DNA of 64,000 bases from Candidatus Acidiferrales bacterium (GTDB lineage Bacteria; Acidobacteriota; Terriglobia; Acidiferrales; UBA7541), in NCBI GenBank assembly GCA_035933545.1, contig DASYYQ010000146.1, forward strand, positions 37,668 to 101,667, written 5' to 3'. The notes beneath the pieces were generated by a model. That model saw only the letters and a list, made by a program, of their open reading frames with translations. It searched no databases and was not told where the DNA came from. Shown one piece after another: positions 27,852 through 59,783 of this stretch. Both the position numbers and the translations under genes were made by a program. How positions within the stretch are numbered: the stretch's first letter is position 1; each line of letters starts with the position of its first letter.

Positions 27852-30800
27852 TCAATCTGCGGTGGAATGGCGATTTCCGCCGGCTGCTGCAATACGTGCG
27901 GCGGCGCCGCGTTCACTCAGGTAATAAAGAACAGGAATGGCCATTTGCGAGAGTGCGGTGGCAGCCACTGCTCCCGCCATCAGTGAAATCGCCAAGCCTT
28001 GAAAAATCGGGTCGGACAGAATCACGCTCGCGCCAACGACCACCGCGGCGGCAGTGAGCAGGATGGGCCGGAAGCGCACTGCGCCAGCGTCTACGACCGC
28101 TTCCTCGAGCGACATTCCATTCGCGCGGCGCAGTTCGATGAAGTCAACCAGAATAATCGAGTTTCGGACAATGATCCCGGCGCCGGCAATAAAGCCGATC
28201 ATGGAAGTTGCCGTGAAGAACGCGCCCAACATTGCATGCGCGGGCAAGATGCCGACAAGAGTCAATGGAATCGGAGCCATGATTACGAAGGGTGTTTTGA
28301 ACGAGCGGAACCATCCCACCACCAGCACGTAAATGAGCACCAGGACTGCGGCGAACGCCAGGCCGAGGTCGCGGAAAACTTCCACGGTGATCTGCCACTC
28401 GCCATCCCATTTCATGGTATAGCGATCGGTGCGCTCTGGAAGCATGGTGCCGAAATACTGCTTCAAATCATAGCCGCCCGGCGTTTGGATTTTGCCGATG
28501 GCGTCGCGCATTTTGAGAATAGCGTAGACGGGACTTTCGATCTGTCCGGCCACGTCGCCGGTCACGTAAACGACGGGACGCAAGTTTTTGCGATAAATGC
28601 TCTGGTCGATTGTGACCGCGCGAACGTCGGTGACTTCGCGAAGGGAAACTTCACCGCCGGAGGGGGTGGGCAGTTTCAGATTTTCGAGGCCTTCGATGCT
28701 GGAGCGATCTGCGCGCGCCAGACGCACTTCGATAGGCACATCTTCGCGGGCAGCGGGGTCGTGCAGAAGGCCGGCTGAAGCTCCGCTCAGCGCGATCTGG
28801 AGGGTGCGCGTGACGTCTGCCGCAGAAATGCCGTGGAGCGCAGCCTTGTCGAGATCAACCTTCAGATCAAATTTCTTCTGTGGATCTTCTACGTACCAGT
28901 CAACGTCCACGACGCCGGGCGTCTGCTGAAATATCGTTTTGATTTTCGCGGCGATTTCGGTCTGAGTTTTGTAGTCCGGTCCGTAGACTTCGGCGACGAG
29001 AGTTGCGAGCACAGGCGGCCCAGGAGGAACTTCGGCTACTTTGATGCGTGCGCCAAAGCAAGCGGCGATTTTGTCCAACTCTGGGCGCAATCTGCGAGCG
29101 ATGTCGTGACTCTGCGCTTTGCGATCGTGACGGGAAAGCAGGTTGACCTGGATATCGCCCTGGTTGGGCTGGCTGCGAAGAAAATAATGCCTGACCAACC
29201 CGTTGAAGTTGTAAGGCCCAGAAGTGCCGGCGTAGATTTCGTAATTGACGACCTCCGGCTGCGCGCCAATGTAATTTCCCAATGCCTGCTCCACGCGGGC
29301 CGTTTGCTCGAGCGTGGTTCCGTCCGGCATGTCGATGATCACCTGGAACTCGCTCTTGTTGTCGAAGGGCAACATTTTGACCTGCACCCACTTCAGCGGG
29401 AACAATGCGACAGCCGCAAGCAGCAGCACCACGACTGTGGAAAGGAAAGCCCATCTTCGCGACGCCTTCTGAATTAGCGGGACCATCAGGCGGCGATAAA
29501 GGCGCGTGGTCCAGCCCTCTGACTCGTGCGCGGGCTTCGGAGTTCCGGCATGATGGCCGAGCAGGCGTAAAGCAGCCCAGGGCGATACCACAAAGGCGAC
29601 GATCAGCGAGAAAACCATAGCCGCAGAGGCGCCTACCGGTATGGGGCGCATATACGGACCCATCAGGCCTCGCACAAAAGCCATTGGCAGGATGGCTGCA
29701 ATCACCGCGAACGTGGCCAGAATCGTGGGGTTGCCAACTTCGTCCACGGCCTCGACGGCAACATCTGCCAAAGGACGGCCGCGGTTCTCCGGCAGCCGAA
29801 AGTGCCGCACGATATTCTCGATGACCACGATGGCGTCGTCCACCAGGATGCCGATGGAAAAAATCAATGCGAACAGAGTTACTCGGTTCAGCGTGTAGCC
29901 GTAGAGACAGAAAATGGCGAGCGTCAGCGCGAGTGTCACGGGGATGGCCAGAAGCACAACGCCCGATTCGCGCCAGCCCAGCGCGAAGGCGATCAATAAA
30001 GTGACCGAAAGCGTAGCAATGAGCAGATGCTCCAGCAATTCGTCGGATTTGTCCTTGGCGGTGGCGCCGTAATCTCGCGTCACGGTGACGTGCAAGTCGT
30101 TTGGCAGCATGTTGCCGCGAAGGGAGTCGACTTTCTTGAGAACATTTTCAGCGATGACCGTGGCGTTCGACCCTTTGCGCTTAGCCAAAGTGATGGTCAC
30201 GGCGGGATAATCCGGATTCACGCTGTTGCCACTCGCGCCCTTGGCTCTTGCGAACATCACGTAATTCTTAGGTTCCCCGGGGCCGTCAACGATCTTCTCA
30301 GCCACGTCCCGCAGGTAGATAGGCCGGCCAGCGTGCACTCCGACGACGACTTGCTGTAAATCTTCGGCGCTCTTGAAAAAATTGCCAGCTTCTACCTGGA
30401 ATTCCTGATTATTGCGGGCGAAGCTGCCGGCTTGGGCGCGGGTGTCAGAAGCACCGAGCTGCGCGACAACGGCGCCGGGCGTGAGCCCATAGGCGGCGAG
30501 CCGCTCGATATCCAGCACGACACGCAGCTCGCGCGGCTGGCCGCCGATGATGGTGGTCTCAGAAACGTCGCGGAGCTGTTTCAGCGAACGGTCAAGCTCG
30601 TCGGCAATTTGCCGCAATTGGTAGGCGTCGTAATTCTTACCCCAGAGCGTGAGCGCGAGAATGGGCACATCATCAATCGACCGGACCTTGATGAGAGGTC
30701 GCGAGACGCCCTGGGGTATGCGGTCGAAGTTCGAATAGAGCTTGTTGTAGGTTTTGACGATGGCGTCATCCTGATTGGTGCCGACATAAAAGCGAACGAT

Positions 30801-31124
30801 GAGCATGCTCAGGCCGGGGTGGCTGATGGAATAGACGTACTCGACGCCCGGTATTTCGCGAATCAATTTTTCCATGGGCACCGTGGCGCGCTGCTCCACT
30901 TCTTGGGCTGACGCGCCGGGCATTTGGACAAACACGTCCAGCATGGGAACAACGATTTGCGGCTCTTCTTCGCGCGGCGTCTGCAAAATGCTGAAAAAAC
31001 CCAAAAGAAGAGCGCCGACGATGAGCAGAGGTGTCAGCTTCGAATCGATGAAGCTGTGCGCGATGCGGCCAGCCAGGCGCAGGACGCGGCGCGAATTGGA
31101 TGTAGTGCTGGCGGAGTTGCTCAT
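27852..31124 (-). CDS. RND-superfamily efflux transporter, inner-membrane permease subunit
   Basis: 1090 aa with 12-TM architecture and two large periplasmic loops. Typical segments include [33 protein letters not shown] and [15 protein letters not shown]. It overlaps the adaptor gene by 4 nt. Confidence 0.9.
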
Positions 31125-32254
31125 GGCTGCGCTGCGATTCGTTTTCCGCCGAGTTCACGGCCGCCGGGTGCGGCCACAAATTCTTCGCCGGTTTGCAAAC
31201 CGGAGAGAACTTCGACCGCTTGTCCCTCGGTTTGGCCCAACGTGACGTAACGCAATTCGGCAATCTGATTGGCTCCGAGCACGTAAATTCCTTGAAGATT
31301 GCCGCGCCCAATTATCGAGGTTCGCGGAATCAGCAACGCCTCGCGCTCACCCCGCAGGAAATTCGCACGCCCAAAGAGGCCGGAGCGGAGCTGCGAGTCG
31401 GCCGGCAATTCGATTTTCACCAGGAAGCTGCGACTGGCCGGATCGGCGGCGGGAACAATCTGAACAACTTTGCCGGCGAGCGCCGGATTTTCAAGCGCGC
31501 CGATAGTCACCGGAACGGTTTGTCCAATGCGGGCGAGGCGAATATCGCTCTCGTCGACGCTCACTTCCAGGCGATAACTTCGCGTGTCTTCCATTGCGAA
31601 GAGAGGCATGCCCGGAGAGGCCAGCGTGCCCGCATCAGCCATTTTTTGCGTCAGGATACCGGAAAAGGGCGCGCGAATGATTGCGTAGCCAAGCGCAGTG
31701 CGAGCCTGCGCCGATGCGGCGTTCGCTTGCGACTGCTGCTCCTGCGCGATGGCGCGTTGCGCCTGCGCCGATTGATAGCGGGCGTTGATTTGGTCGAATT
31801 CCTGCGGGCTGACGGACTTTTTTTTGTACAATTGCTGGTAACGCTTCAGCGTCGCCGCAGCCAGCGCAAGCTCCGAGTCTGCGGCAGTGACTCCGCTCTG
31901 TGCGGCGCTTACGGCAGCTTCGGCCTGCTGCATGGCGGCGCGCGGCTGAGCATCGTCTAGGACGGCGAGGATTTGGCCGCGTTTCACGAGATCGCCTTCA
32001 TGCGCGCGGATTTCGACGATGTTGCCCATCATTTGGCTGGAAATTTGGCTGGTCTGATCGGACTGCACAGTTCCTACAACTCGCAACCAGTCGGGAACGC
32101 GCGTGTCTTGCGCGACAGTCACTGAAACGTTGCTCACCGTTTCGAGCGGAGCCGCCTTTGCGCCGCGCTCGCTGCTGCAGCCTGCCAGTACGGTGCTCAA
32201 TACGGCCAGCAATATGCAGAGCAAGATAGTGTTTGCGTAAGTTTTGCGATTCAT
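31121..32254 (-). CDS. RND efflux periplasmic adaptor (membrane fusion protein), lipoprotein
   Basis: Lipobox LAGCSS, an alpha-hairpin coiled coil ([12 protein letters not shown]...[10 protein letters not shown]), and barrel-sandwich/beta-barrel segments ([18 protein letters not shown]). Confidence 0.85.
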
Positions 32255-33720
32255 GGCGTCACCATGGGAGATTGAGGATTCAACGTACCGGTGGCCAGCT
32301 GCAGATTGGCGTAGCTGGTTTGATAGCGATAAATGGCATCATAATAATCTGACTGGCTGCGCCGCGCAGCTTCTTCAGCAGCGAGCAGATCGCTGATCGT
32401 CGAAAGGCCGGAGTCGTAGCGGTTCTGATTGATACGCAGGCTTTCCTGCGATTCGGCGATTGCGGCGCGAGCGACTTCGAGCTGCCGCTGGGCTGCGTCC
32501 ATTTGATAGTACGCTCTCCGCACTTCCAGCCGAACGGCGTCGCTGGCCATATCCTTCGCGGCGACGACTTTGTCTTGCATGGCGCGCTCATGGGCAAGCT
32601 GCGCTCGTTTTGCTCCGCCCTGGAAAAGGTCGAATTGCACTTCGATTCCAGCGAGCCAGTTATTTCCGCCTCCGCCAGCGAGAAACGTTGGGTTATCAGC
32701 TTCCCAGTCTCCGAAGGCGCTGACGCGCGGGCCGAAGGACGACTTCGCGATGAGCACGCTTTGATGTTGCGCTGACTCTTCGGAACGAATTTGCTTCAAG
32801 TCCGGGCGAGTCTCGAGCGCCTGTTTCTCGGCCTGTTCCATGGAAACCACAGGCAGAGTTTTCTCGACAAGCGTGCCCATTACGTCAAATTCGGTTTGTG
32901 CGGGCAGTCCCATCGAGACGTTCAACTGCGCCTGCGCCAGCGCGAGGTCGTTCTGAGCGCCAATGAGTTCTTGTCGTCTTGACGCGAGCCGCACCTGCGC
33001 GCTCAGCAAATCGGATTTCACGACGATGCCGCTTTCATAACGATTCTTGCTTTGCTCGAGAATGGCCTGCGCTGTTTTCAATGCTTGCTCGGCGATATCG
33101 AGTTGTTTTTCACCGAGCAGCACAGAGTAGTAGGAATCGATGACCTGGAAAACGATTTGCTGGTTGGTGTGCTCGAGCTGATTCCCGGCTGCGTCTTTTG
33201 CCCGCTGGGCGCGAACAACGCCGCGCCAGCTCGCCAGCGAATCGAACAAATTCCACGTTCCGCCGAATTGCGTCGCGAAATTGCCGATGGGAAGCGGCGT
33301 GTTCAGGCTGTTCAGCGCGAAATCCGCAGCGGCGAATCGCTGCTGCCGCAATCGGCTGCCGAAGACGTATACCGGATCGTTGCCGCGCGTAGCAGTTTCA
33401 GAAAAAGTGGCGTGTGGCAAAAGAAAAGACCGTGCTTCGCTCACATCCGCGGCGGCGGCGCTGGTGTCCGCGAGCGCTGCTTTGCGCTGAGGATTTTTCT
33501 CCAGCGCAATTTTGACGGCTTGTCCGAGAGAAAGCGGAGCCGGCTGCTGCGTTGCTTGCGCGGAGAGCAATTCAGGAACGGACAGCACAACCGCGAAAAT
33601 CATCAACGCGTACCCGGCAAATCGAAATGCGCCATTGATTCGTGAAAGAAGCTTTGACAATCCGCTCTTCATTTTTGTGGGTTGTTGTAGTCCGCGCATT
33701 TTCATAAGAAGCTCATCCAT
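32251..33720 (-). CDS. TolC-family outer-membrane efflux protein
   Basis: Signal sequence plus two repeats of the TolC helical/beta pattern (LSLGQAVKIALEKNP..., ...YESGIVVKSDLLSAQV..., ...RYDSGLSTISDLLAAE...). It overlaps the adaptor gene by 4 nt. The start is uncertain, since several in-frame Met codons are available. Confidence 0.8.
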   Translation of the reverse strand: MDELLMKMRGLQQPTKMKSGLSKLLSRINGAFRFAGYALMIFAVVLSVPELLSAQATQQPAPLSLGQAVKIALEKNPQRKAALADTSAAAADVSEARSFLLPHATFSETATRGNDPVYVFGSRLRQQRFAAADFALNSLNTPLPIGNFATQFGGTWNLFDSLASWRGVVRAQRAKDAAGNQLEHTNQQIVFQVIDSYYSVLLGEKQLDIAEQALKTAQAILEQSKNRYESGIVVKSDLLSAQVRLASRRQELIGAQNDLALAQAQLNVSMGLPAQTEFDVMGTLVEKTLPVVSMEQAEKQALETRPDLKQIRSEESAQHQSVLIAKSSFGPRVSAFGDWEADNPTFLAGGGGNNWLAGIEVQFDLFQGGAKRAQLAHERAMQDKVVAAKDMASDAVRLEVRRAYYQMDAAQRQLEVARAAIAESQESLRINQNRYDSGLSTISDLLAAEEAARRSQSDYYDAIYRYQTSYANLQLATGTLNPQSPMVTP

Positions 33721-34177
33721 TCACGGTTGCCGTCGTTGGAGCAAGCCACGCCGTTTTCTCTTCGACAATCTCGTAGGTCGTCTCCAGACGCGCCGTGTGC
33801 TTGACCATCGCGGATACCGAGCAGTATTTCTCGTCGGAAAGGCATATGGCCTGTTCGATTGCGCGGGAATCTATTTCGACCCCGGTGACCACATGGTGGA
33901 TGCGCACCGCCGTGAAAACCTGTGGCGGGCGCTCGGCTTGATCGGCTTCGACGCGCACCTCGTAGCCGGTGACCTTTTGGTGATACTTCTGGCGAAGAAT
34001 GGTGATGACGTCGAAAGCAGTGCATCCTGCCAGCGCTGCGGCCATTAGTTCAATTGGCTTTGGGCCGGTGCCTCCGGCGGCATCGTCGAGAATCAGGCAG
34101 TGCTCGCTTCCGGCTGTTGCGACGAACTGCCGCTCCACTCTTAGCGGTTGAGTTAGCAAAACTTTGGCTGTGACCAT
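33713..34177 (-). CDS. OsmC/Ohr-family peroxiredoxin-like protein
   Basis: ATG at 34177 has GGAGA upstream. GPKPIELMAAALAGCTAFDV and ...EKYCSVSAMV are the two conserved Cys contexts of the OsmC family. The 3' end overlaps the TolC-like ORF by 8 nt. Confidence 0.8.
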   Translation of the reverse strand: MVTAKVLLTQPLRVERQFVATAGSEHCLILDDAAGGTGPKPIELMAAALAGCTAFDVITILRQKYHQKVTGYEVRVEADQAERPPQVFTAVRIHHVVTGVEIDSRAIEQAICLSDEKYCSVSAMVKHTARLETTYEIVEEKTAWLAPTTATVNG

Positions 34178-34362
34178 TTGCGTTTCTCCGCGATGAATCG
34201 AGTTCACGCGAATAAATGCAAAGGAAGGAGTTTTGTTACAGGGAATCCGCAAATTCTTTTTCACGCCTCACTTTTTGGAAACGGATTCGGTGGGCGGGTG
34301 GCGTCCAGATTTTTATCGGTTTTCGTGTTTCGTCGCGCCGCGACGTTCCCGGTTTGCGATTG

Positions 34363-34452
34363 TCAGGTTGGCACGCCGAGCCGTGGAAGCACCCACTTGA
34401 GCAAAATGAAATACGCCAGAAGCGCGATTAAAAATTCCAGAATGTTGGTCAT
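34363..34452 (-). CDS. 29-aa hydrophobic micro-ORF, translationally coupled (ATGA) to the USP gene
   Basis: MTNILEFLIALLAYFILLKWVLPRLGVPT. Its ATG overlaps the TGA of CDS 34449..35330. It has a single TM helix. This is not in the ORF track because it is shorter than 60 aa. Confidence 0.3.
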   Translation of the reverse strand: MTNILEFLIALLAYFILLKWVLPRLGVPT

Positions 34453-35330
34453 TTCGCACCTGTACTTGTCTCTGGAACTACCAGGACGGCCGAATCCGCG
34501 TGCCGCACCACACGTTCTGTGGTGCTGCCCAGCATGGTGAATTCGAACAGTCGCTGATGCAGCGCGCCGAGCGTGATCAAATCAACCGCGTGCTCGCGTG
34601 CAGCTAGCAGGACCTGCTCGGCGGCATTGCCGTGGCGGACTACCTCCACCAAATCACAGCGGCTTCGTACTTCTGAAGGCACCCATTGGCAGAGTTGCTC
34701 TCCCGTTGACTTAAGATTAGCGTTTTCACCCTCAACAGCGTGCATGATCACGAGCTGCGCCCCGAAAGAATGCGCTATCTCAGCAGACACTCGCAGACAT
34801 CCGCGCGCGGCGTCGGTAAAGTTGATTGGGCACAGAATCCGGGAGATTTTCGGCGTCATTTGCTCCGCTTCACGGGCTCTCACAACGAGCGTTGGCGTCA
34901 ACGATGCGCGCACCACATTTTCTGCCACGGAACCCAAACGCAGGCGAGTGATGCCGCTCCGCCCGTGGCTGCCCATAACGATCAGGTCCAGTTTTCGAGA
35001 TGCGGCATGTTCCAATATTTTTTCGATGGGATGCCCTTCCAAAACTGCAATTTCCGGGTCGAGTTTTGAGCCCAGCGCTTCCCGGACCAGCTTCGCGAGT
35101 CTATCGGCCAGCACGGCGCGCTGTTGCTGGACCGTTCCTTCCAATTCCGCCACCTGCGACGGCAGAAAGTATGGCGGGTATTCGAACCATGCTGCATGCA
35201 AAAGCTCCAGTTTTGCGTGGTAGACCTCCGCAAACATGCCCGCCCAGTTCAGCACCGTTCGCGATGCCGCGCTCAGGTCCAGCGGGCATAAGATCATTTT
35301 CGGTACGAACCCTCCTCGTGCCTCTGGCAT
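34449..35330 (-). CDS. tandem-domain universal stress protein (UspA family)
   Basis: Two Usp repeats: ILCPLDLS...DLIVMGSHGRSGITRLRLGSVAENVVR...PTLVV, and ILCPINFT...DLITLGALHQRLFEFTMLGSTTERVVR...AVLVV. GAGGTG lies 5 nt upstream of the ATG at 35330. Confidence 0.8.
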   Translation of the reverse strand: MPEARGGFVPKMILCPLDLSAASRTVLNWAGMFAEVYHAKLELLHAAWFEYPPYFLPSQVAELEGTVQQQRAVLADRLAKLVREALGSKLDPEIAVLEGHPIEKILEHAASRKLDLIVMGSHGRSGITRLRLGSVAENVVRASLTPTLVVRAREAEQMTPKISRILCPINFTDAARGCLRVSAEIAHSFGAQLVIMHAVEGENANLKSTGEQLCQWVPSEVRSRCDLVEVVRHGNAAEQVLLAAREHAVDLITLGALHQRLFEFTMLGSTTERVVRHADSAVLVVPETSTGAK

Positions 35331-35448
35331 TTGTGCACCTCGGCAGGCCCAGTGCTTCGGGCCACACGAATGAATGCAGACGCGCGGAATCTGTTACAGA
35401 AAAATGAGGAAACCTGTGTGTGCAGAGGCGACAACCCCTAAGTAGAAG

Positions 35449-36354
35449 TTACCCCGTTTGATTCGGGCTGGAGATATTTGCCAGAGCATCGTGGTACTCG
35501 GAGAGCAGTTCGCGTCTGAGCTTGGCGGCGACGCGTGCATCGGGAGGCTCATTTGGCGCCGTCCGGCATTGCTGAATCGTTCGTTCCAAACTGGACAGAA
35601 ACGCCTTGCAAGGTTCACAGCCCTGCATGTGCTTTTCCAATTCTTCACAGAGCGAATCGTCGAGCTCATCGTCCAGATAGTTGGAAATTTCGGCGAACAT
35701 TTGCTTGCAGCGTCGCTCGCGCGGCATTGTGGTAGAGGCATTTTGCGGTGCGCGCTGCGGCGTCGCCTGCTGAACGCTATGCACCTCCTGCTTCGCTAGT
35801 TCCTTTCGCACGAACAGCCGCGCCCGGTGCAGCCGCACGCGAATGGTTCCGAGCCGAAGCCCGGTGATTTCAGCCACCTCCGCATCGGACAGCTCTTCCA
35901 TATCATGCAGCACCAGAACCAGTCGGTAATTTGATGGCAGTTTTTGTACCGCTACACGAAGCCGCTTCGCATTTTCGCGGCGCAACAGGCTGTCCTCTGG
36001 GGTCGCAGAGGCTTTTCCCGAAAAGCCTTGCAATTCCTTGCGATCGGGCATCAATTCTTCGAGGGAGAGATTTTCCTTGGGGGCAAATTTGCTCTTGCGG
36101 CGGCTCATCAGGCAGCGGTTCTTGGCCACTTTGTAGAGCCAGACCACGAGCGCTTTGGGGCTGTCGAACTTCGGTAGATTAGGAACCGATTTGACCAGTA
36201 CGTCCTGCATGGTATCTTCGGCGTCTTGCCGCTGGCCGCAGACCTTCAGGCTGAACGAAAAGACGGTGTTTTGCAGCAGCGCAAGCGCTTCGTCCAGCGA
36301 TTTCGTGTCCTTGCGGTGCACCAGTTCGATGGCACGCTCAATCTCGGGTCGCAC
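35449..36354 (-). CDS. ECF sigma factor fused to a C-terminal zinc anti-sigma (ZAS, zf-HC2) domain
   Basis: Sigma2 region: [13 protein letters not shown]...[13 protein letters not shown]. Sigma4 region: [48 protein letters not shown]. After a ~30-aa linker comes [39 protein letters not shown], which is C...HxxxCxxC. No TM segment follows. GTG start. Confidence 0.8.
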
Positions 36355-36551
36355 CGCTCAAATGTAGCATGTCTGCCCGCCCCTGGGCATGGCAGGTTCG
36401 CCACTCCACGCGCTGGGCGTTCCTTCTCGTACCGGACCGCAATCCTTTTGGTAAGGGACCGATTGTGGCCGCCATAAGACGCGGCTTTTCCGCGAAACGA
36501 ATCTCTGGTAACATTCCAACCATCGTTTCCAGCGACTTATTGGAGCTAAGA

Positions 36552-58268: not shown

Positions 58269-59783
58269 ATGAGCGCGACGAACTCAAGAACGACAACGGC
58301 AAACGCGGAAGGCACGTCGCGCGTCTCCGCCGAACTGCGTTCCCGCTACGAATGCGTCGCCGGCCTCGAAGTACACGTGCAACTCGCGACGGCCACGAAA
58401 GCGTTTTGTGCGTGCTCCACGCGATTCGGCGATCCGCCAAATACAAATGTCTGCCCCGTTTGCTTGGGCTTGCCGGGTGCATTACCTGTGCTCAATGGGC
58501 GCGCCCTTGAGCTGGCGACGAAGGCCGCGCTAGCGCTGCATTGCGATGTGCAGCAGCGTTCGCGGTTCGCGCGCAAAAATTATTTTTATCCCGATTTGCC
58601 GAAGGGCTATCAAATTTCGCAATATGAGCTGCCGCTTGCTACGGGAGGCTGGCTCGAAATCGAAATCAGCGGCGCCAAAAAGCGCATCGGCATTACCCGC
58701 CTGCACATGGAAGAGGACGCAGCGAAAAATTTACACGAAGGCTTCACCGACGCTGCCGAATACAGCCATATTGATTTCAACCGCTGCGGTGTGCCGCTCA
58801 TCGAAATCGTCAGCGAGCCCGACATTCGTTCGCCGGAAGAAGCCTACGCATATTTGACCACTTTGAAACAGGCGCTCGAATATACCCAGGTTAGCGATTG
58901 CAATATGGAATCAGGCTCGCTCCGCTGCGACGCTAACGTCAGCGTGCGTCTACACGGCTCCGATAAGTTTGGAACGAAAGTTGAAGTAAAGAATCTGAAT
59001 TCGTTCCGTTATTTGACTCATGCATTCGAGTACGAAATTGACCGTCAGATCGGCGTTCTCGAATCGGGCGGAAGCGTCTCTCAAGAAACGCGCCTGTGGG
59101 ACGTCGCAACGGACCGCACGGAGCCGATGCGCTCTAAGGAATTTGCGCATGATTATCGCTATTTCCCCGAGCCCGATTTGCTGCCGGTGGAAATCACCGA
59201 GGCGCGAAAGCGCACCATTCTTGGTGACATGCCGGAGCTTTCCGATGCCAAGCGTGCCCGCTTTTTGGCCGAATACGGACTCAGTGCTTACGACGCAGGG
59301 GTGCTAACCGCAACCACAGCGCTTGCGGATTATTTCGAATCAGCTGTTCGGGCTGGTGCGTCGCCGAAAACCGCGGCCAACTGGATTCAAACAGAATTGT
59401 TGCGCCGTTTAAATGACGCTAACAAAGGTATTTCACACTCGCCGGTTCAGCCCGAAGAGCTCGCGGATTTGTTGCGGCGCGTCGAGAGCGGCGAAATCAC
59501 CGGAGCCATCGGCAAGCGCGTCTTTGCCAAAATGTTCGGAACCGGAAAATCAGCGGGCGAAATTATCACCACAGAAGGCCTTTCGCCCATCAGCGATACG
59601 GCCGCCGTGGAGAAGGTCTGCCGTGAGGTCATTGCGAAAAATGCTGACAATGTGGCGAAGTATCGCGCAGGCAACGAAGGAGTATTCAAATTTTTCGTAG
59701 GCCAGGTGATGAAAGAAACCAGGGGCCGCGCCAATCCGCAAGCGGTGAATGAAATTCTGGCTAGATTGTTGCAGCAGACATAG
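58269..59783 (+). CDS. gatB: Asp-tRNA(Asn)/Glu-tRNA(Gln) amidotransferase subunit B
   Basis: [13 protein letters not shown]...TKAFCAC...[21 protein letters not shown]...[19 protein letters not shown]...EEDAAKN is canonical GatB. A C-terminal YqeY-like tail is present. Confidence 0.9.

Follow-up and report, generated by a model that had tools for sequence, protein, structure and literature searches.

A predicted one-polypeptide sigma/anti-sigma factor linked to an osmC and efflux operon in Terriglobia

A 64,000-nucleotide stretch of a Candidatus Acidiferrales bacterium genome (contig DASYYQ010000146.1, positions 37,668 to 101,667; hereafter the window) was found to encode a 301-residue protein that joins a sigma factor of the extracytoplasmic function (ECF) class to a soluble zinc-binding anti-sigma (ZAS) domain. 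This protein probably serves as a one-polypeptide sigma/anti-sigma switch through which oxidative stress controls the adjacent osmC and efflux operon. Its gene (35449-36354, stop codon included) lies on the minus strand, marked (-) below, begins with GTG and runs as one open, uninterrupted frame.

Region 2 of the sigma factor (Sigma70_r2, PF04542) spans residues 28-89 (36088-36273 (-); Pfam E 1.3e-10) and holds C39 and C81. Region 4 spans residues 131-183 (35806-35964 (-)), where PF08281 (Sigma70_r4_2; residues 131-180, E 1.9e-13) and PF04545 both match and the AlphaFold predicted local distance difference test (pLDDT) exceeds 90. With regions 2 and 4 above the Pfam cut-offs and no Pfam match to sigma regions 1 and 3 in the 301-residue protein, the factor falls into the ECF class (group IV) of sigma-70 proteins, and it scores 81 bits against the NCBIfam model TIGR02937 (sigma70-ECF), the cut-off of which is 42.9. 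The nearest named NCBIfam models are SigW-like, all of them far under their equivalog cut-offs. When a family profile was compared with the PDB, SigW was the top match for the sigma part (E 6e-29) and RsiW and RsrA matched the extension (~6e-5), and both profile and Foldseek comparisons found agreement of the sigma fold with ECF sigma structures, domain by domain. The sigma factor is followed by a linker of ~25 residues (about residues 190-213; 35716-35787 (-)), which is variable in sequence and length, shows in-frame insertions and deletions (indels) in the alignment and has a pLDDT below 50 at residues 199-211, and then by the ZAS domain (residues 214-295; 35470-35715 (-)), delimited by zf-HC2, by RsrA and RsiW matches and by an AlphaFold model with four predicted helices. 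No transmembrane segment was detected in the 301-residue protein, and a membrane anchor can be set aside because the peak 19-residue Kyte-Doolittle mean is only 0.96. An earlier reading of this DNA, made from the letters and their open reading frames (ORFs) and referred to here as the original prediction, had proposed that sigma2, sigma4 and a complete ZAS ligand set share a single polypeptide that lacks a membrane anchor and continues for about 50 soluble residues beyond the zinc motif. The ORF, the Pfam matches, the residue positions and the hydropathy maximum bear this out, and the Sigma70_r2, Sigma70_r4_2 and zf-HC2 models all pass their curated cut-offs in the profile check that it had proposed.

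In the extension (residues ~190-301), the only Pfam match is zf-HC2, at residues 216-249 (E 2.5e-7, 31.1 bits against a gathering cut-off of 22.2); the SnoaL_2 and TPR domains known from ECF41 and ECF42 are absent. The cysteines of the protein lie at positions 39, 81, 216, 236, 246, 249 and 263, and the putative zinc ligands form a CHCC set, C216-x25-H242-x3-C246-x2-C249 (35608-35709 (-)), with the additional conserved C236 inside it. The motif HMQGCEPC corresponds to residues 242-249. While the original prediction was right that the Cys/His set is complete, the x23 and x6 spacings it gave were not, the true arrangement being RRC216-x19-C236-x5-H242-x3-C246-x2-C249. Across 78 fused homologues with 43-76% identity, H242, C246 and C249 never vary, conservation reaches at least 90% for C216 and C236, and C39 and C81 in sigma2 are invariant as well; the latter two may form an additional redox site. 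When the C-terminal domain alone was compared with PDB sequences, the best match was RsrA (5frf), over RsrA residues 9-85, and the second was RsiW (5wuq). C236 lies 20 residues past the first ligand and C263 past the motif, and these two further conserved cysteines occupy positions similar to those of the non-ligand cysteines of RsrA at residues 31 and 61/62. The predicted ZAS helices cover residues 214-227, 233-245, 247-265 and 273-295, with an AlphaFold pLDDT of 63-92 and moderate confidence for helices I and II. Their order parallels that of RsrA helices I-IV, and the spacing of C216, H242, C246 and C249 equals that of the RsrA ligands Cys11, His37, Cys41 and Cys44 (PMC4960319). An N-terminal cysteine ligand, CHCC rather than HHCC, is needed for the oxidation-induced release of a ZAS domain, and RsiW and ChrR, both HHCC ZAS proteins, are insensitive to disulfide stress (PMC4960319). 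We infer that the C-terminal domain is an RsrA-like CHCC ZAS domain and that it would bind zinc.

The fusion is widespread. A search over 5.8 billion proteins returned more than 6000 matching proteins, and a domain comparison of the top 120 found all of them to be 298-330 residues long, with the same three domains and 74-99% identity. Two more searches, seeded with distant members, recovered the same architecture down to ~45% identity. Relatives occur in at least 487 species-representative genomes, nearly all of them from Terriglobia, and their hosts are mostly Terriglobia metagenome-assembled genomes of the Acidoferrales/Acidiferrales, Terriglobales and Acidobacteriaceae. The best 80 of these at least 487 relatives, to which all locus counts out of 80 below refer, match over their full length, one being ended by a contig edge. 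The original prediction had singled out the linker as a place where a frameshift or missed stop might hide, and no interruption was found there: the fusion is conserved, and the linker length differences among homologues are all in frame in the alignment. Because the same ORF recurs in hundreds of assemblies and its linker indels preserve the frame, a frameshift or missed stop merging two genes is ruled out as an assembly artefact. An internal start at M209, which would make a separate ZAS protein, was likewise rejected; M209 stands just before the ZAS domain in the window protein and its closest relatives, is replaced by Q, A or S in most homologues and has no Shine-Dalgarno sequence before it. 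Judged by its conservation, the fusion is real and under selection.

The nature of the C-terminal domain is illuminated by relatives in which the two halves are separate. An exhaustive search with residues 200-301 yielded 1035 relatives, some fused (~300 residues) and many stand-alone proteins of 85-100 residues, the latter with 35-45% identity to the fused domain and, in several cases, the same Cys/His pattern. One stand-alone ZAS protein maps to Bryobacterales and Solibacteraceae genomes. At split loci in 9-10 independent Bryobacterales assemblies, a gene for an ECF sigma factor of ~207 residues is followed by one for a soluble ZAS protein of 90 residues, the two being read in different frames with an overlap of 17-23 nucleotides (nt). 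The split sigma factor shares 36-41% identity with residues 1-190 of the window protein and retains the equivalent of sigma2 C39, and the split ZAS protein has the same CHCC ligand spacing, the extra cysteines being present in 8 of the assemblies. In nine of the ten loci the split sigma gene is preceded by a tolC-like gene in divergent orientation, and in one locus (L084) an OsmC gene adjoins the split pair. Because the Bryobacterales orthologues form an overlapping sigma/ZAS gene pair, the fused domain would be a bona fide anti-sigma partner, and the reading of the C-terminal domain as an anti-sigma module is strongly supported by homology; in the fused protein it would inhibit its own sigma domains.

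Fused forms were also found in Solibacteraceae, other Acidobacteriota and Desulfobacteraceae, all of which were reached when a divergent fused protein (P0303) served as the query; Anaeromyxobacter was not reached. Among the Bryobacterales, sigma and ZAS are two overlapping genes at loci L081-L089 and apparently one frame at L090 (2376-3220 (+)). Fused forms outside the main clade, together with this fused-looking locus among split ones, imply that fusion or fission of the two genes occurred more than once. Two other observations were made on these relatives. In L083 and L085-L087, the region between the divergent tolC and the split sigma gene holds inverted repeats of the form GTGACA...TGTCAC, ~80-150 nt ahead of sigma, which may be an operator for another regulator. 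In three proteins (P0301, P0364 and P0365), three or four ZAS (HxxxCxxC) units stand in tandem ahead of a hydrophobic segment; these proteins resemble multi-ZAS membrane anti-sigma proteins.

A candidate for the promoter served by the sigma factor lies directly after its stop codon, where a T-rich stretch precedes a 29-nt element, TGTAACA-N13-TGCATTYAT (equivalent to TGTAAC-N16-CATTYAT). The window holds two copies of this ECF-type motif: copy 1 (TGTAACA-N13-TGCATTCAT; 35370-35398 (-)) sits in the gap between the sigma stop and the next gene and has 0 mismatches, and copy 2 (TGTAACA-N13-TGCATTTAT; 34212-34240 (-)), also exact, lies upstream of osmC. Even allowing three mismatches, 0.48 sites per window would be expected by chance. 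The motif is exact in 61 of the 80 loci and is recovered by a position weight matrix (PWM) or a relaxed pattern in 73-77 of them, in every case on the sigma strand and 3' of the sigma gene; the relaxed pattern alone finds it in 73. Two copies were also present in five other loci (L015, L024, L032, L051 and L061), each with genes inserted between sigma and osmC. When 185,579 genomes were scanned for the motif, at least 120 loci matched, and about 65 of the 120 listed sit directly upstream of osmC, nearly all of these beside a sigma-ZAS gene; most of the other loci listed belong to low-GC genomes of other phyla, have no related gene near and look like chance matches. ECF promoters are characterised by AAC within the -35 element, a -10 element that differs from group to group and a spacer of 14-17 nt, and the SigW promoter reads TGAAAC...CGTA (PMC5758882). 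Since the motif has these hallmarks and is linked to the sigma gene, we infer that the fused sigma factor has TGTAAC-N16-CATTYAT as its cognate promoter. A PWM scan of the split loci for the TGTAAC motif gave no match, and the promoter variant used there may be a different one.

Several further observations concern this motif. Exact copies were seen 40-62 nt upstream of a gene for a molybdopterin oxidoreductase with a twin-arginine translocation (Tat) signal (L142, 6546-6574 (+); L195, 7546-7574 (+)) or for a tandem universal stress protein (USP; L235, 7293-7321 (+)), in hosts from the Acidoferrales and other Acidobacteriota; both kinds of gene are possible further members of the regulon, as judged from motif position. 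A GC-rich hairpin (GGCCC-loop-GGGCC) is conserved just after the -10 element, as part of the downstream gene's 5' leader, both in the window (35345-35365 (-)) and in L023, L025, L037 and L070. A third, weak match in the window, with three mismatches (59745-59773 (-); TGCAACAATCTAGCCAGAATTTCATTCAC), is probably due to chance.

The gene that carries copy 2 in its upstream region is the first conserved gene 3' of sigma and encodes an OsmC-family protein, a putative peroxidase (33713-34177 (-); Pfam OsmC, E 5e-18). Its ORF call (33713-34264, 183 residues) is too long at the 5' end, and translation likely begins at the ATG at 34177 (MVTAKV, with GGAG 9 nt upstream). The protein matches NCBIfam PRK10738 with E 7e-28 and 97 bits, under the 138-bit cut-off. 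It is followed by a tolC-MFP-RND operon (27852-33720 (-)) whose frames overlap each other and osmC, made up of genes for a tolC-like outer-membrane protein (32251-33720 (-); Pfam OEP), a membrane-fusion protein (MFP; 31121-32254 (-); Pfam HlyD_D23) and a resistance-nodulation-division (RND) permease (27852-31124 (-); Pfam ACR_tran). On the same strand, sigma is followed by osmC in 75 of the 80 loci and by the tolC-like gene in 71. The permease scores 448 bits with the NCBIfam multidrug model and 291 bits with the heavy-metal (HME) model, both far under cut-off, and a heavy-metal reading of the pump is not supported by this comparison. By gene order, then, the conserved partner of the sigma gene is the osmC and RND efflux operon, not the USP. 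No conserved protease gene was found in the neighbourhood of the sigma gene across the 80 loci.

In the window itself, the gene that directly follows sigma encodes a tandem USP (34449-35330 (-); Pfam Usp, E 1e-46). The ORF call of 293 residues is again too long at the 5' end, the likely true start being M12 at 35297 (MILCPLD, with GAGGAGGG upstream). The original prediction had noted that no separate anti-sigma gene follows and that the next gene is a USP, and this holds for the window; the USP is no conserved partner, however, as just 2 of the 80 loci have it directly 3' of sigma and just 4 have any USP match (it was also seen in L149 and L221). On this distribution, the USP gene between sigma and osmC is a lineage-specific insertion. 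Between the USP gene and osmC lies a small ORF (34363-34452 (-)) for a hydrophobic peptide of 29 residues (MTNILEFLIALLAYFILLKWVLPRLGVPT) with no Pfam match, and the overlap of its ATG with the USP stop codon (ATGA) suggests that it is translationally coupled to USP.

Upstream of the sigma gene, an extended -10-like element (TGCTACATT; 36361-36369 (-)) ends 6 nt before the GTG start codon. The pattern TGnTAnAnT (consensus CGTGCTACAGTT) is present in 71 of the 80 loci, and in 70 of these it ends 6-7 nt ahead of the start codon, amid unconserved flanks, and TACnAT elements of a similar kind occur at the split loci. Its form and position point to a housekeeping-type promoter that would yield a leaderless mRNA. 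An autoregulatory ECF promoter upstream of the sigma gene was considered and rejected, the motif being found within 400 nt upstream of it in none of the 80 loci. Because an extended -10 element is present and an upstream ECF promoter is not, these sequences suggest that the sigma gene is expressed constitutively and that control is purely post-translational, which fits a one-component sensor.

These elements can be assembled into a model of how the switch would operate. The gene would be transcribed constitutively from its housekeeping-type extended -10 element, probably into a leaderless mRNA. In the resting protein, zinc would be held by C216, H242, C246 and C249 of the four-helix ZAS domain, which would fold back through the ~25-residue linker over sigma2 and sigma4 and block binding to core RNA polymerase; inhibition in cis is proposed because of the homology to the split sigma/ZAS gene pairs. 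Peroxides or electrophiles would then oxidise or alkylate the CHCC site, a disulfide from C216 to either C246 or C249 being the most likely outcome, and the zinc would be expelled and the anti-sigma domain would collapse in the fashion of RsrA. Once freed, the sigma factor would bind core RNA polymerase and fire the TGTAAC-N16-CATTYAT promoter just downstream, which it is predicted to recognise. This would switch on osmC and tolC-MFP-RND, and in the window genome a further promoter copy, the one before the USP gene, would add the tandem USP to the response. Re-reduction would reset the switch, no autoregulatory promoter being involved. Release by thiol oxidation or zinc loss, as the original prediction proposed, is plausible by analogy, because the CHCC site has an N-terminal cysteine as in RsrA (PMC4960319) and because the target operon starts with a putative peroxidase of the OsmC family.

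Several points weigh against this account. The docking of the ZAS domain on sigma2 and sigma4, for which the original prediction had looked to AlphaFold, is not modelled with confidence: a first, poor model, built from a shallow alignment (59-90% identity), reached a pLDDT of 58.7, and a second one, from 78 more diverse sequences, a mean pLDDT of 81 with a predicted template-modelling score (pTM) of 0.35, so that the domains are modelled with confidence but their packing against each other is not. Foldseek comparison with the PDB re-identified only ECF sigma chains, at high root-mean-square deviation (rmsd), and its superpositions of the sigma part on sigma factors in holoenzymes or in complex with an anti-sigma factor deviated by 12-18 Å rmsd. 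The sigma part is nearest to SigW-like factors and not to the SigR/SigH group, thioredoxin genes are absent from the conserved neighbourhood in the 80 loci, and the invariant C39 and C81 of sigma2 are unaccounted for by the model. Not all ZAS domains sense redox, the HHCC proteins RsiW and ChrR being examples (PMC4960319), and fused members of ECF270 are predicted to be activated by proteolysis rather than by reversible oxidation (PMC8999054).

A stronger form of the model would have the protein act as a reversible thiol switch with no partner, no proteolysis and no autoregulation, as a core stress sensor of Terriglobia in which C39 and C81 form a redox relay with the ZAS cysteines. We regard this version as doubtful.

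Among the alternatives to the switch model, we consider irreversible proteolysis unlikely. Here the ZAS domain would again inhibit in cis, and in response to a signal a protease of the Clp or Lon type would cut the linker or degrade the ZAS domain, freeing a sigma factor of ~190 residues, a mechanism put forward for fused anti-sigma extensions at large; oxidation might or might not trigger the unfolding. Both the fused ECF270 members and ECF48/52/53 are listed under 'proteolysis' in PMC8999054, the linker is disordered and variable, and the variable C-terminal tail (residues 296-301 and beyond) could be a degron. However, the neighbourhood lacks a conserved protease gene and the protein lacks a transmembrane segment and the logic of site-1 and site-2 proteases; the conserved CHCC set and the extra RsrA-like cysteines are not required for simple degradation, and a reversible, stoichiometric switch is what the lack of autoregulation would fit.

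Slightly less likely still is a ZAS domain that does not respond to thiol oxidation, in which zinc would stabilise an inhibitory or modulatory domain that responds to metal excess or limitation, to a small molecule or electrophile, or to a protein partner, or that is positively needed, as the extensions of ECF41 and ECF42 are. The insensitivity of HHCC ZAS proteins such as RsiW and ChrR to disulfide stress (PMC4960319), the SigW-like sigma part, the positive roles known for C-terminal extensions (PMC7826278; PMC8999054) and the domination of the operon by an RND pump of uncertain substrate class (448 bits multidrug, 291 heavy-metal) all fit such a protein. They are countered by a site that is CHCC, not HHCC, with the ligand spacing of RsrA, by a putative OsmC-family peroxidase as the first regulated gene, and by split orthologues in which ZAS is a separable anti-sigma protein. 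Finally, it is highly improbable that the fusion is an artefact, be it of a sequencing or assembly frameshift, a missed stop or a ZAS domain made separately from an internal start, for although split versions exist in a sister order and Met209 precedes the ZAS domain in the window protein and its closest relatives, the ORF runs without interruption in hundreds of assemblies made independently and in proteins from metagenomes by the thousand, the linker indels are in frame, and M209 is unconserved and without a Shine-Dalgarno sequence.

Acidobacteriota, and Terriglobia among them, are among the most abundant soil bacteria, and we know of almost no experimental work on their stress signalling. 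The window protein would offer a compact regulator for such work, with a predicted CHCC sensor, a predicted TGTAAC-N16-CATTYAT promoter, a core regulon of osmC and an RND pump, and naturally occurring split and fused versions. Its interest lies mainly in its ubiquity in a major soil phylum, in a family that is uncharacterised and in a promoter and regulon that are predicted concretely. Were the thiol switch in cis to be confirmed, this would be the first characterised soluble sigma/anti-sigma fusion, and synthetic biology could use it as an orthogonal transcription switch that consists of a single gene and responds to redox; if it were not, the protein would simply join the catalogued ECF sigma factors that have a C-terminal extension. 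If the switch is reversible, a history in which a free RsrA-like anti-sigma factor was repeatedly fused and split off would amount to a natural experiment on inhibition in cis versus in trans.

Among known systems, ECF41 (SigJ) and ECF238 (CorE) also carry a cytoplasmic sensing module at the C-terminus and have no separate anti-sigma factor. For ECF41, Wecke et al. reportedly found in 2012 that the main target is a neighbouring gene and that there is no autoregulation. The Cys-rich extension of CorE answers to both metal and redox state (PMC7826278). Unlike the window protein, these factors bear a SnoaL_2 domain or a Cys-rich tail of ~20 residues, not a complete anti-sigma domain homologous to free-standing ones. 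ECF48, ECF52 and ECF53 of Actinobacteria (for example SCO4117) come closer, being ECF factors with a C-terminally fused, ZAS-like zinc-finger domain (PMC8999054; PMC5826349). Their extensions, however, which reach up to 400 residues, also comprise one or two transmembrane helices or more and extracytoplasmic domains, and regulated intramembrane proteolysis is the expected route of release, whereas the window protein has no transmembrane segment and comes from Acidobacteriota. ECF270 has soluble ZAS regulators, an example from Acidobacteria and some members with a fused extension, and no member has been studied experimentally (PMC8999054). The split form of Bryobacterales and the fused form of Terriglobales and Acidoferrales both fit ECF270 as far as its group description goes, its reference members being ODS58609.1 and WP_011419852.1, and the literature descriptions suggest a place for the window protein near ECF270 or ECF48/52/53. 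The original prediction correctly counted ECF factors with C-terminal extensions as a known class and took direct ZAS fusions to be poorly characterised; such fusions are already catalogued (ECF48/52/53 and some of ECF270; PMC8999054), with the members of ECF270 experimentally unstudied.

SigW of Bacillus subtilis, in complex with RsiW (5wuq), is the closest solved sigma factor by profile (E 6e-29), RsiW matches the ZAS part (E 6e-5), and the SigW promoter, TGAAAC...CGTA, also has an AAC-containing -35 element (PMC5758882). RsiW differs in being a protein of its own, in having a membrane anchor and an HHCC site, and in its destruction by regulated proteolysis, whereas the window protein is soluble, fused and CHCC. 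The pairs RsrA-SigR (Streptomyces coelicolor) and RshA-SigH share with the window protein a soluble four-helix ZAS domain with a CHCC set of the form Cys-x25-His-x3-Cys-x2-Cys, and thiol oxidation is the expected trigger, as in RsrA-SigR (PMC4960319). In those pairs the partners are separate proteins, whereas the window domain is covalently fused to its sigma factor, which is not ECF12-like (63 bits against a cut-off of 252 for TIGR02947). The window system also differs from RsrA-SigR in having no sigma autoregulation and no thioredoxin genes nearby, with osmC and an RND pump in their place, and its promoter, TGTAAC-N16-CATTYAT, is not of the SigR type. By analogy, the window protein would work like RsrA-SigR while standing outside that pair.

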